NCBI RefSeq assembly: GCF_044704955.1
Contig: NC_091999.1
Span: forward strand, 61,628,001-61,692,000
Length of the DNA stretch: 64,000 bases
Direction: 5' to 3'
Source of the DNA: Pristiophorus japonicus
Lineage: Eukaryota
Position 1 is the first letter of the stretch; each line of letters begins with the position of its first letter. This document shows, piece by piece, positions 60,007-64,000 of this stretch. Both the position numbers and the translations under genes were made by a program. The notes under the pieces were generated by a model that was given only the letters and a program-made list of their open reading frames with translations, was not told the DNA's origin and did not search any database.

Positions 60007-62994
60007 TCAGTACCCCCTTCCTGCTTTCTCGCCATAACCCTTGATCCCCCGAGTAGTAAGGACTTCATCTAACTCCCTTTTGAATATATTTAGTGAATTG
60101 GCCTCAACTACTTTCTGTGGTAGAGAATTCCACAGGTTCACCACTCTCTGGGTGAAGAAGTTTCTCCTCATCTCGGTCCTAAATGGCTTACCCCTTATCC
60201 TCAGACTGTGACCCCTGGTTCTGGACTTCCCCAACATTGGGAACATTCTTTCTGCATCTAACCTGTCTAAACCCGTCAGAATTTTAAACGTTTCTATGAG
60301 GTCCCCTCTCATTCTTCTGAACTCCAGTGAATACAAGCCCAATTGATCCAATCTTTCTTGATAGGTCAGTCCCGCCATCCCGGGAATCAGTCTGGTGAAC
60401 CTTCGCTGCACTCCCTCAATAGCAAGAATGTCCTTCCTCAAGTTAGGAGACCAAAACTGTACACAATACTCCAGGTGTGGCCTCACCAAGGCCCTGTACA
60501 ACTGTAGCAACACCTCCCTGCCCCTGTATTCAAATCCCCTCGCTATGAAGGCCAACATGCCATTTGCTTTCTTAACCGCCTGCTGTACCTGCATGCCAAC
60601 CTTCAATGACTGATGTACCATGACACCCAGGTCTCGTTGCACCTTCCCTTTTCCTAATCTGTCACCATTCAGATAATAGTCTGTCTCTCTGTTTTTACCA
60701 CCAAAGTGGATAACCTCACATTTATCCACATTATACTTCATCTGCCATGCATTTGCCCACTCACCTAACCTATCCAAGTCACTCTGCAGCCTAATAGCAT
60801 CCTCCTCGCAGCTCACACTGCCACCCAACTTAGTATCATCCGCAAATTTGGAGATACTGCATTTAATCCCCTCGTCTAAATCATTAATGTACAATGTAAA
60901 CAGCTGGGGCCCCAGCACAGAACCTTGCGGCACTCCACTAGTCACTGCCTGCCATTCTGAAAAGTACCCGTTTACTCCTACTCTTTGCTTCCTGTCTGAC
61001 AACCAGTTCTCAATCCACGTCAGCACACTACCCCCAATCCCATGTGCTTTAACTTTGCACATTAATCTCTTGTGTGGGACCTTGTCGAAAGCCTTCTGAA
61101 AGTCCAAATATACCACATCAACTGGTTCTCCTTTGTCCACTTTACTGGAAACATCCTCAAAAAATTCCAGAAGATTTGTCAAGCATGATTTCCCTTTCAC
61201 AAATCCATGCTGACTTGGACCTATCATGTCACCATTTTCCAGATGCACTGCTATGACATCCTTAATAATTGATTCCATCATTTTACCCACTACTGAGGTC
61301 AGGCTGACCGGTCTATAATTCCCTGTTTTCTCTCTCCCTCCTTTTTTAAAAAGTGGGGTTACATTGGCTACCCTCCACTCCATAGGAACTGATCCAGAGT
61401 CAATGGAATGTTGGAAAATGACTGTCAATGCATCCGCTATTTCCAAGGCCACCTCCTTAAGTACTCTAGGATGCAGGCCATCAGGCCCTGGGGATTTATC
61501 TGCCTTCAATCCCATCAATTTCCCCAACACAATTTCCCGAATAATAAAGATTTCCCTCAGTTCCTCTTCCTTACTAGACCCTCTGACCCCTTTTATATCC
61601 GGAAGGTTGTTTGTATCCTCCTTAGTGAATACCGAACCAAAGTACTTGTTCAATTGATCCGCCATTTCTTTGTTCCCCGTTATGACTTCCCCTGATTCTG
61701 ACTGCAGGGGACCTACGTTTGTCTTCACCAACCTTTTTCTCTTTACATACCTATAGAAACTTTTGCAATCCGCCTTAATGTTCCCTGCAAGCTTCTTCTC
61801 GTACTCCATTTTCCCTGTCCTAATCAAACCCTTTGTCCTCCTCTGCTGAGTTCTAAATTTCTCCCAGTCCCCAGGTTCGCTGCTATTTCTGGCCAATTTG
61901 TATGCCACTTCCTTGGCTTTAATACTATCCCTGATTTCCCTAGATAGCCACGGTTGAGCCACCTTCCCCTTTTTATTTTTACGCCAGACAGGAATGTACA
62001 ATTGTTGTACTTCATCCATGCGGTCTCTAAATGTCTGCCATTGCCCATCCACAGTCAACCCCCTAAGTATCATTCGCCAATCTATCCTAGCCAATTCTCG
62101 CCTCATACCTTCAAAGTTACCCTTCTTTAAGTTCTGGACCATGGTCTCTGAATTTACTGTTTCATTCTCCATCCTAATGCAGAATTCCACCATATTATGG
62201 TCACTCTTCCCCAAGGGGCCTCGCACAATGAGATTGCTAATTAATCCTCTCTCATTACACAACACCCAGTCTAAGATGGCCTCCCCCCTAGTTGGTTCCT
62301 CAACATATTGGTCTAGAAAACCATCCCTTATGCACTCCAGGAAATCCTCCTCCACCGTATTGCTTCCAGTTTGGCTAGCCCAATCTATGTGCATATTAAA
62401 GTCACCCATTATAACTGCTACACCTTTATTGCATGCACCCCTAATTTCCTGTTTGATGCCCTCCCCAACATCCCTATTACTGTTTGGAGGTCTGTACACA
62501 ACTCCTACTAACGTTTTTTGCCCTTTGGTGTTCTGCAGCTCTACCCATATAGATTCCACATCATCCAAGCTAATGTCTTTCCTAACTATTGCATTAATCT
62601 CCTCTTTAACCAGCAATGCTACCCCACCTCCTTTTCCTTTTATTCTATCCTTCCTGAATGTTGAATACCCCTGAATGTTGAGTTCCCAGCCCTGATCATC
62701 CTGGAGCCACGTCTCCGTAATCCCAATCACATCATATTTGTTAACATCTATTTGCACAATTAATTCATCCACCTTATTGCGGATACTCCTTGCATTAAGA
62801 CACAAAGCCTTCAGGCTTGTTTTATTAACACCCTTTGTCCTTTTAGAATTTTGCTGTACAGTGGCCCTTTTTGTTCTTTGCCTTGGGTTTCTCTGCCCTA
62901 CACTTTTCCTCCTCTCCTTTCTGTCTTTTGCTTTTGGCTCCTTTTTGTTTCCCTCTGTCTCCCTGCATTGGTTCCCATCCCCCTGCCATATTAG
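60007..62994 (-). CDS. CR1 ORF2: APE-type endonuclease plus reverse transcriptase (frame open from the ORF1 overlap; no AUG before the catalytic residues)
   Basis: The 932-aa track ORF starts at TTG, and 63 further open codons upstream reach the ORF1 end. Motifs [33 protein letters not shown]. Confidence 0.95.
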   Translation of the reverse strand, partial: LIWQGDGNQCRETEGNKKEPKAKDRKERRKSVGQRNPRQRTKRATVQQNSKRTKGVNKTSLKALCLNARSIRNKVDELIVQIDVNKYDVIGITETWLQDDQGWELNIQGYSTFRKDRIKGKGGGVALLVKEEINAIVRKDISLDDVESIWVELQNTKGQKTLVGVVYRPPNSNRDVGEGIKQEIRGACNKGVAVIMGDFNMHIDWASQTGSNTVEEDFLECIRDGFLDQYVEEPTRGEAILDWVLCNERGLISNLIVRGPLGKSDHNMVEFCIRMENETVNSETMVQNLKKGNFEGMRRELARIDWRMILRGLTVDGQWQTFRDRMDEVQQLYIPVWRKNKKGKVAQPWLSREIRDSIKAKEVAYKLARNSSEPGDWEKFRTQQRRTKGLIRTGKMEYEKKLAGNIKADCKSFYRYVKRKRLVKTNVGPLQSESGEVITGNKEMADQLNKYFGSVFTKEDTNNLPDIKGVRGSSKEEELREIFIIREIVLGKLMGLKADKSPGPDGLHPRVLKEVALEIADALTVIFQHSIDSGSVPMEWRVANVTPLFKKGGREKTGNYRPVSLTSVVGKMMESIIKDVIAVHLENGDMIGPSQHGFVKGKSCLTNLLEFFEDVSSKVDKGEPVDVVYLDFQKAFDKVPHKRLMCKVKAHGIGGSVLTWIENWLSDRKQRVGVNGYFSEWQAVTSGVPQGSVLGPQLFTLYINDLDEGIKCSISKFADDTKLGGSVSCEEDAIRLQSDLDRLGEWANAWQMKYNVDKCEVIHFGGKNRETDYYLNGDRLGKGKVQRDLGVMVHQSLKVGMQVQQAVKKANGMLAFIARGFEYRGREVLLQLYRALVRPHLEYCVQFWSPNLRKDILAIEGVQRRFTRLIPGMAGLTYQERLDQLGLYSLEFRRMRGDLIETFKILTGLDRLDAERMFPMLGKSRTRGHSLRIRGKPFRTEMRRNFFTQRVVNLWNSLPQKVVEANSLNIFKRELDEVLTTRGIKGYGEKAGRGY

Positions 62995-63938
62995 TTTAAA
63001 TCCTCCCCAACAGCACTAGCAAACACTCCCCCGAGGACATTGGTTCCAGTCCTGCCCAGGTGCAGACCGTCCGGTTTGTACTGGTCCCACCTCCCCCAGA
63101 ACCGGTCCCAATGCCCCAGGAATTTGAATCCCTCCCTGCTGCACCACTGCTCAAGCCACGTATTCATCTGCGCTATCCTGCGATTCCTACTCTGACTATC
63201 ACGTGGCACTGGTAGCAATCCCGAGATTACTACTTTTGAGGTCCTACTTTTTAATTTAGCTCCTAGCTCCTTAAATTCGTTTCGTAGGACCTCATCCCTT
63301 TTTTTGCCTATGTCGTTGGTACCAATGTGCACCACGACAACTGGCTGTTCTCCCTCCCATTTCAGAATGTCCTGCAACCGCTCCGAGACATCCTTGACCC
63401 TTGCACCAGGGAGGCAACATACCATCCTGGAGTCTCGGTTGCGGCCGCAGAAACGCCTATCTATTCCCCTCACAATTGAATCCCCTATCACTATCGCTCT
63501 CCCACTCTTTTTCTTGCCCTCCTGTGCAGCAGAGCCATCCACGGTGCCATGAACTTGGCTGCTGCTGCCCTCCCCTGATGAGTCATTCCCCTCAACAGTA
63601 CCCAAAACGGTGTATCTGTTTTGCAGGGGGATGACCGCAGGGGACCCCTGCACTACCTTCCTTGCTCTACTCTTCCTGCTGGTCTTCCATTCCCTATCTG
63701 GCTGTGGACCCTTTCCCTGCGGTAAGACCAACTCACTACACGTGATACTCACGTCATTCTCAGCATCGTGGATGCTCCAGAGTGAATCCACCCTCAGCTC
63801 CAATTCCGTAACGCGGACCGTCAGGAGCTGGAGGCGGATACACTTCCCGCACACATAGTCGTCAGGGACACCGGAAGCGTCCCTGAGTTCCCACATGGTA
63901 CAGGAGGAGCATAACACCCGACCGAGCTCTCCTGCCAT
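62991..63938 (-). CDS. CR1 ORF1p: CxxC-CxxC zinc finger, coiled coil and SGNH/GDSL esterase domain
   Basis: CSSC...CGKC, heptad LQLLTVRVTELELRVDSL, and esterase blocks IGDS, PGA, GTND, PDGLH; GCCATGG Kozak start. Confidence 0.95.
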   Translation of the reverse strand: MAGELGRVLCSSCTMWELRDASGVPDDYVCGKCIRLQLLTVRVTELELRVDSLWSIHDAENDVSITCSELVLPQGKGPQPDREWKTSRKSRARKVVQGSPAVIPLQNRYTVLGTVEGNDSSGEGSSSQVHGTVDGSAAQEGKKKSGRAIVIGDSIVRGIDRRFCGRNRDSRMVCCLPGARVKDVSERLQDILKWEGEQPVVVVHIGTNDIGKKRDEVLRNEFKELGAKLKSRTSKVVISGLLPVPRDSQSRNRRIAQMNTWLEQWCSREGFKFLGHWDRFWGRWDQYKPDGLHLGRTGTNVLGGVFASAVGEDLN

Positions 63939-64000
63939 GACTTAACCCTTAGATGCACTTAAACTGGTAATAACAATGTTAAAAGTTACTGACCAATATA

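Follow-up and report, generated by a model that had tools for sequence, protein, structure and literature searches.

The reverse transcriptase gene of a CR1 LINE in Pristiophorus japonicus is likely expressed by programmed −1 ribosomal frameshifting, the predicted shift site being a U_UUA_AAC heptamer next to the ORF1 stop codon; the case is built on sequence comparison. The window, meaning the whole stretch of DNA analysed, is 64,000 nucleotides long and holds an intact, young CR1 LINE of the esterase type. The features of this element are:

63939..64000, minus strand: 5′ UTR, 3′ part only, the remainder being past the window end (outside the window, and on the basis of locus L009, that remainder has tandem monomers of ~64 nt)
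62991..63938, minus strand: CR1 ORF1, 315 aa, ATG at 63938, PF13472, C-terminal GEDLN*
62991..63938, minus strand: parts of ORF1, namely an N-terminal Cys cluster, a middle that reads as coiled-coil-like from the sequence, then an SGNH esterase
63623..63634, minus strand: segment of ORF1 complementary over 12 bp to the G-rich element, a possible long-range partner, not conserved past two lineages
63000-62994, minus strand: slippery heptamer U_UUA_AAC (T_TTA_AAC), abutting the ORF1 stop on its 5′ side
62993-62991, minus strand: ORF1 stop UAA, the 0-frame codon immediately after the heptamer (UAG in other lineages)
60007..63000, minus strand: ORF2 frame, intact, with APE endonuclease and reverse transcriptase domains; length 997 codons, counted from the heptamer
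62811..62990, minus strand: basic linker of ~60 codons, −1 frame
62843..62989, minus strand: out-of-frame AUG with a 48-codon frame, not present in other lineages
62970..62987, minus strand: G-rich element GGCAGGGGGAUGGGAACC, 18 nt, 6 nt past the heptamer, conserved, candidate stimulator
62951..62983, minus strand: four G tracts with loops of 2/10/7, the third and fourth not conserved beyond the window's family
59909..60006, minus strand: 3′ UTR, a stem-loop-like inverted repeat followed by a (TTTCTATG)n tail, by direct sequence reading

The element has the traits of the CR1 clade: a tandem-repeat 3′ tail, no LTRs, and dispersed copies with 5′ truncation. Its ORF1 profile matches the esterase of ZfL2-1 ORF1p (PDB 4c1b) at E 2e-39, and the domains matched in ORF2 are PF03372, PF14529 and PF00078. 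In a tree made by a quick method, and of the ORF1 esterase only, it clusters with ORF1s from sharks, amphibians and reptiles. There are 44 near-identical copies of its subfamily, very young and intact. Targeting of tRNA genes was considered and rejected, since the flanks of other copies are unrelated.

As the initial annotation had it, GAG GAT TTA AAC TAA, read on the minus strand, places U_UUA_AAC in X_XXY_YYZ phase at the end of ORF1, and the −1 frame continues uninterrupted into the endonuclease and reverse transcriptase. That frame spans 1002 codons between stops, opening at 63015 and closing with the stop at 60007; with codons numbered from the heptamer, its endonuclease Asn falls at 69 and Glu at 96. 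The junction heptamer aside, there are 0 phased X_XXY_YYZ sites in ORF1 and 2 in ORF2, or ~0.2% per codon. On the frameshifting proposal, the majority of ribosomes would terminate at UAA and release a 35-kDa ORF1p. A minority would pause with UUA in the P site and AAC in the A site, re-pair one base back and continue through ...GEDLN-LIWQGDGN..., to yield, in the manner of Gag-Pol, an ORF1p-linker-endonuclease-reverse transcriptase fusion of the size originally estimated (predicted 1310 aa and ~148.5 kDa, or 1309 aa and 148.4 kDa if the initiator Met is not counted). The likely source of the pause would be the adjacent stop together with the conserved G-rich 18-mer that lies 6 nt beyond the heptamer. 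Shifting of this kind would keep the enzyme scarce relative to ORF1p, and through it the enzyme could be bound to the particle that ORF1p forms.

Heptamer and stop are kept in 21/22 copies of lineage 1b and in 21 of the 31 copies of the older lineage 2 (~50% aa; 8 mutated, 2 deleted), both lineages having been gathered without use of the junction. The 1c lineages were gathered by the junction pattern and their agreement is partly by construction. Modal distances from the heptamer to the endonuclease Asn are 204, 216, 162, 171 and 252 nt, all of them multiples of 3 and in the −1 frame (in lineage 2, 14/20 copies are in phase). The linkers of these lineages are dissimilar in sequence and length, yet the −1 frame is retained. 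It is the sole open frame in all 5 reference linkers (P 0.009–0.057 each), the window's among them with a probability of 0.057 that a shuffled linker is open. The commonest form of the heptamer in the genome is G_UUA_AAC, with 75 by hand count among the first 100 listed of 49,244 copies; it is carried by the commonest sister subfamilies, and predominates in two other organisms too (contigs of four runs). It departs from the X_XX rule, and G_UU(A) is the slip site of equine arteritis virus (PMC5009743).

Outside this genome the evidence consists of proteins and the contigs of four runs, joints on single contigs being left out. Metagenome and genome scans for CR1 junction DNA in other taxa returned 9 and 7 distant loci, none with the junction, and viral scans gave no CR1 junction. 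LN is the C-terminus of 48/82 ORF1 homologues, sharks, rays and one frog among them, and snake, lizard and turtle relatives are likewise LN-ended. Sixty-eight of 123 non-redundant esterases end in N, preceded by L, G or K in 63 of the 68 against a background of 24%. The four heptamers most prone to slippage encode LN, GN, KN and GF, and these dipeptides were scored as a set: one of them is in the terminal window of 40/44 proteins of the vertebrate clade (2.9 expected) and 44/69 of the invertebrate clade (5.8 expected, at the protein level only, 25/69 having no top-four dipeptide), and, unlike the CR1 here, 0/8 of the teleost outgroup, the terminal window and dipeptide set having been picked after the data were seen and the relatives not being independent. 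Sister proteins switch among the four. The sequence F-K-L, which is the −1 reading of TTT AAA CTA, is present in three junction-spanning database proteins (two ray, one painted-turtle), and longer fused proteins accounted for 2 matches among 8000 scored.

The G-rich 18-mer, present in 49,244 copies, has identical letters in lineages whose linkers are unrelated. The initial annotation had looked to a G-quadruplex for the stimulator, and four G tracts do start 10 nt past the heptamer (62983-62951). A three-tier quadruplex is rejected as a conserved stimulator because four G3 tracts are confined to the window's family (21/21, 30/32 and 7/8 copies) and are mostly missing in five other lineages, where 0/22, 1/24, 0/16, 0/13 and 5/21 copies have them. 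The total loop is 19 nt, and G4-stimulated −1 frameshifting declines already at loops shorter than that total (PMC3919603). No local hairpin or pseudoknot past the slip site was found beyond those of shuffles (z −1.1). A long-range duplex of ORF1 63634-63623 with the G-rich element has 12 bp in the window's family, with 0/60 codon shuffles as strong; in lineage 1b it reaches 10 bp. It shrinks to 7–8 bp, no better than control windows, in lineage 2 as in the TAG lineages, and there is no compensatory change. We tentatively suggest that the G-rich element may act as a two-tier G-quadruplex. It is rather doubtful that it is a protein-bound roadblock, and just as doubtful that there is no real stimulator other than the stop; action through the long-range duplex is improbable, and stimulation by the three-tier quadruplex equally so. 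The broader reading, to which as a whole we give an even chance, has as its cartilaginous-fish part a natural, pseudoknot-free G-rich stimulator, be it a two-tier quadruplex, a bound protein or an ORF1 strand 640 nt upstream.

Alternatively, termination-reinitiation of the L1/SART1 kind, either at an AUG in the linker or at a non-AUG codon, could yield a separate ORF2p, the heptamer, stop and G-rich element then being a termination/reinitiation signal. This is unlikely in our estimate, though it is the accepted model for L1/SART1 (PMC2881922). Initiation of L1 ORF2 is thought to be AUG-independent (PMC5009743), and so lack of an AUG, on which the initial annotation had drawn, proves little. 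The lack itself is real in the window copy, where the first in-frame Met is codon 198, ~130 residues into the endonuclease. The parent family has a linker AUG: codon 30 (62913-62911) is AGG in the window copy and ATG in the parent. Such a codon, a point in favour of reinitiation, is missing in only 61 of 17,719 copies and present in 100/100 of the first 100 listed of these. Also on that side is the predominance of G_UUA_AAC, a weaker slip site. Even with frameshifting, subfamilies that have a linker AUG may produce some free ORF2p in addition to the fusion. In most copies the linker Met is Met30 or Met20, and it is Met58 in 13/13 copies of one lineage. In two older lineages, represented by 24 and 16 copies, no common in-frame ATG is seen through and past the catalytic Glu. 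In the lineages of this genome heptamer phase and an open linker are kept, and the argument from absence of an ORF2 AUG holds for those two older lineages. That linker Met positions (20, 30, 58 or none) are non-homologous between lineages argues against reinitiation, as does the start of the open frame at the heptamer itself, upstream of every AUG; nor does reinitiation predict the switching of ORF1 ends among LN, GN, KN and GF.

The AUG directly after the stop (62989) is, as was first reported, out of frame, and its 48-codon frame closes at 62843. An ATG is within 20 nt in 1/21 copies of lineage 2, and the TAG lineages have TAG CTTGG. As a SART1-type stop-start for ORF2 it is rejected, being out of frame and not conserved. 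UGGGA within the G-rich element is a calicivirus TURBS-like motif; TURBS, however, sits 5′ of the stop, and this UGGGA is 3′ of it. [The AUG-less burst of 44 copies was in turn rejected as proof of AUG independence. Subfamilies with common linker frameshifts or deletions are dispersed as well, so the burst could have been mobilised in trans.]

A very unlikely explanation is that the LN end and the WQGDGN start have no recoding role and persist because the protein requires them, or because recombination has made the junction uniform. Chimeric and recombinant subfamilies are present in the genome, and the partly built-in agreement of the 1c lineages is also to its credit. Against it, TTA is fixed at the ORF1 end though it accounts for 3/26 of the Leu codons elsewhere in ORF1, and the synonymous sites of the 18-mer, though left free, are fixed too (exact in 72/100 matches listed, with no dominant alternative). 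Other clades carry different dipeptides in place of LN, and the esterase of the outgroup does without it; the match to the ZfL2-1 esterase stops before the LN position, so the fold does not need LN. That spliced or processed RNA, or transcriptional slippage, brings ORF2 in frame with a start codon is more improbable still, since splicing would drop parts of ORF1 and full-length dispersed copies have an unchanged junction, and since the slip site has runs of 3 nt only, which are a poor substrate for polymerase slippage. Of the original proposal, the core, programmed −1 frameshifting to an ORF1-ORF2 fusion, is as a prediction well supported, since the heptamer, its phase and an open linker are kept from lineage to lineage and between taxa; the three-tier G-quadruplex stimulator is not supported, and the argument from AUG absence is weak in this family.

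The arrangement resembles retroviral gag-pol and nidoviral 1a/1b (U_UUA_AAC of IBV; PMC5009743) in that a phased heptamer ends the structural ORF, with the polymerase ORF in the −1 frame and a conserved element 6 nt downstream. It differs in being non-LTR, in its predicted protease-less fusion and in having no detectable hairpin or pseudoknot, and here the frameshift is read from sequence. Among APE-type LINEs, a review states that −1 frameshifting is needed for ORF2 of Dictyostelium TRE5-A and TRE3-A (PMC5911963), which are of another clade and host; the ORF1 of the present element is of the esterase type. Canonical vertebrate CR1 (PMC13343379) and ZfL2-1 (PMC3905857) share with the present element the esterase ORF1, APE and reverse transcriptase ORF2 and tandem-repeat 3′ tail; there are 0 mentions of frameshifting in these two papers. 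L1/SART1 RNA is likewise bicistronic, with ORF2 output dependent on ORF1 translation, but yields a separate ORF2p (PMC2881922), whereas in CR1 the two frames overlap at a slip site that is conserved, and a fusion is predicted. In G4-stimulated −1 frameshifting G-rich sequence is also 3′ of UUUAAAC, and the best spacer, 6–8 nt, fits the start of the 18-mer (PMC3919603). However, those quadruplexes were engineered, short-looped and three-tier, and gave ~7% at best, whereas the CR1 tracts have 19 nt of loop, are 10 nt away and are not conserved. Our search found no published report of CR1 frameshifting or account of CR1 ORF2 translation, though the idea of a frameshift may already be present in older papers on CR1 sequences.

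In most vertebrate species the predominant retrotransposons belong to the CR1 group (PMC13343379). The genome offers intact, very young copies as well as naturally occurring variants that differ in the heptamer (G or U) and in whether the linker has an AUG, and so the question is directly testable with a short reporter. Were the proposal true, it would explain how ORF2 is translated in the LINE that is commonest in most vertebrates, and the active CR1 enzyme would be an ORF1p-endonuclease-reverse transcriptase fusion. Annotation of ORF2 from its first Met would cut off catalytic residues, and CR1 retrotransposition assays would require the native junction. Recoding of viral type would be extended to animal LINEs, and a natural non-pseudoknot stimulator would be on offer.

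The slippery junction that ends ORF1 of the minus-strand CR1 LINE is a real feature, and the element carrying it comprises the following.

59909-64000, minus strand: CR1 LINE, most of the full-length element
63938-62991, minus strand: ORF1, 315 aa, an SGNH esterase
63000-60007, minus strand: second frame (ORF2), stop-free, with APE endonuclease and RT domains

As the initial annotation had it, a phased U_UUA_AAC is present at 63000-62994 with UAA following, and beyond it the −1 frame is open, with the endonuclease Asn at codon 69 counted from the heptamer, the Glu at 96 and the first Met at 198. The AUG after the ORF1 stop is out of frame, four G tracts are present 10 nt downstream of the heptamer, and the computed fusion of 1310 aa (about 148 kDa) agrees with that predicted. 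Further phased heptamers are scarce, there being none in ORF1 and two in ORF2. [A G_GGA_AAC, also phased, is at 62946-62940, minus strand, in the −1 frame, 47 nt past the start of the first heptamer.]

The element is a canonical esterase-type CR1, and a protein homologue search gave shark and ray proteins as the nearest named relatives of its ORF1. This copy is very young: identity extends over 341 nt in 32 of the 40 matches scored, there are 0.24 differences per 100 nt between it and 30 other copies, and the flanks of these near-identical copies are unrelated to one another. Its insertion point lies within the 5′ end of one tRNA-Asp-like unit, part of an array of tRNA units (59900-59915, and the 5′ flank of locus L009), and a target duplication of 4-5 nt is possible there; comparison of flanks revealed no tRNA-type target at other CR1 copies. 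The 5′ UTR (upstream of ORF1 in L009, and in loci L001-L030) consists of tandem monomers of ~64 nt with a TATA-like box, the monomer motif having 1 to 6 hits per copy in L001-L030. Elsewhere in the window, C2H2 zinc-finger-like coding pieces adjoin a long array of tandem repeats that contains open frames (54340-56344).

Judged from sequence comparison, the likeliest route to ORF2 product is −1 slippage at the heptamer, and we consider it probable. Slippage would compete with termination at the ORF1 stop, and the output would be plentiful ORF1 protein plus a minor fusion of ORF1 protein, linker, endonuclease and RT. Junctions were gathered from this genome by protein, DNA and pattern searches and assigned to lineages by their linkers, lineages 1b and 2 being recovered without use of the junction in the search. 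TTTAAAC TAA is present in 21/22 copies of lineage 1b (75-80% aa identity) and in 21 of the 31 of the old lineage 2 (about 50%), where 8 are mutated and 2 deleted; TTA is used for just 3 of ORF1's 26 other Leu codons. The junction pattern with a TAG stop was found in 3098 copies (control pattern, 0), which represent three or more lineages whose linkers are unrelated, three clusters holding 53 of 60 copies. Between the heptamer and the endonuclease Asn the modal spacing is 204, 216, 162, 171 or 252 nt, in each case keeping the −1 frame, which is the sole open frame in 5/5 reference linkers (shuffle P 0.009-0.057) and has its phase intact in 14/20 lineage 2 copies. The heptamer phase is conserved across lineages; the lack of an ORF2 AUG, also anticipated, is not general.

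That lack holds for the window copy, for the mere 61 of 17,719 parent-family copies with AGG at linker codon 30 (44 of these, by hand count, with the window's haplotype), and for two lineages (24 and 16 copies) with no in-frame Met ahead of the catalytic Glu. An in-frame AUG is at codon 30 in all of the first 100 of the 17,719 listed, and other lineages have Met20 or Met58. These linker AUGs favor the main rival, synthesis of ORF2 protein by reinitiation, as does the view that the L1 ORF2 start is AUG-independent (PMC5009743). We rate reinitiation as the main source unlikely, though it may coexist with frameshifting in subfamilies having a linker AUG. The burst of AUG-less copies was discarded as proof of AUG independence since defective subfamilies disperse too. 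Dispersed non-autonomous subfamilies have linker frameshifts and deletions in common, and therefore trans-mobilisation occurs. [Those sharing linker defects or chimeric joins, the latter fusing two lineages directly after the endonuclease start, are loci L172, L182, L190; L179, L184; L181, L188; L173, L189; and L175, L187, L194.] LINE proteins of the stringent type recognise the 3′ tail (PMC4176376). Two genome matches to ORF1, G000:C4:150174680 and G000:C1:417583545, lie in frames that stay open for 955 and 639 aa and are possibly natural in-frame ORF1-ORF2 fusions. In a metagenome contig (L032:1326-1340), a distant LINE's esterase ORF1 ends UGA CUA, a stop-readthrough-like context, and the endonuclease ORF shares its frame; this suggests a different recoding route in that relative.

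The four G tracts (62951..62983, minus strand), proposed as a quadruplex stimulator, did not survive comparison. The window's family has them in 58/61 copies, other lineages in 0/22, 1/24, 0/16, 0/13 and 5/21, and their loops sum to 19 nt, whereas G-quadruplex stimulation already falls at loops of 6-10 nt (PMC3919603). Folding at the junction yielded no stable downstream hairpin. What is kept is a G-rich 18-mer, GGCAGGGGGAUGGGAACC, whose first base is 6 nt past the heptamer: eight groups agree in 18/18 columns, against 1/37 just downstream, an agreement owed in part to how the groups were found. A search that let synonymous sites vary gave 4044 matches; among the first 100 of them the 18-mer is exact in 72, the commonest variant accounting for 9 (hand counts). 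In lineage 2 another G-rich run occupies this position, and in every lineage most copies fit a two-tier GG quadruplex pattern over the first 30 nt. ORF1 contains a 12-bp complement to the G-rich element 640 nt upstream; in the lineage comparison its conservation ends at two lineages.

Anchoring on the 18-mer gave 49,244 copies, and the first 100 listed have G_TTA_AAC in 75, T_TTA_AAC in 16 and other variants in 9 (hand count). Elsewhere, contigs from two organisms carry mainly the G form and those from two more mainly the T form. This G_UUA_AAC majority departs from the strict heptamer rule; it fits a weaker slip site because G_UU(A) works as an arterivirus frameshift site (PMC5009743).

At the protein level, LN is the C-terminal end of 48/82 ORF1 homologues. 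A profile search extended the set to 223 proteins, and the 150 with the esterase His motif include ends in LN (88), GN (10, with snow crab proteins in this group) and KN (3); named LN carriers include sharks, rays, frog, snake, lizards and turtles. [P0007 and P0262, CR1 ORF1 proteins under bacterial names in public databases, are probably host contamination.] When 172 usable of 248 proteins were reduced to 123 at under 80% identity, 68 of the 123 had a final N, with L, G or K preceding it in 63 (background 24%). KN, GN, LN or GF is within residues 22-33 after the motif in 40/44 vertebrate-clade proteins (2.9 expected; 2 truncated rows dropped), 44/69 invertebrate-clade (5.8 expected) and 0/8 of a teleost outgroup, with clade labels being our reading of a rapidly built tree whose rows mostly lack an organism name. 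The residue range and the dipeptides were picked after data inspection and related proteins do not count as independent, which makes the P values look stronger than they are. Three junction-crossing database proteins, two from ray and one from turtle, read F-K-L, and this sets the same phase there.

By inference the CR1 junction works like gag-pol frameshifting. The Dictyostelium elements TRE5-A and TRE3-A are said to use a −1 frameshift (PMC5911963), and for L1 and SART1 the mechanism named in reviews is reinitiation (PMC2881922). The words 'frameshift', 'overlap' and 'translation' do not occur in a survey of CR1-group elements of vertebrates from 2026 (PMC13343379), nor does 'frameshift' in PMC3905857; the word is also absent from PMC4120745, the CR1 and frameshift passages of PMC11835228 are unconnected, and PMC8535693 yielded no relevant content. 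Literature searches found no report of CR1 frameshifting, older papers being outside their reach and an earlier printed suggestion possible. New here are the switching of the heptamer across clades, seen at the protein level, the G_UUA_AAC majority among CR1 copies, the caveat that linker AUGs attach to an AUG-less ORF2, and the replacement of the four-tract quadruplex by the conserved 18-mer as the element that is kept.
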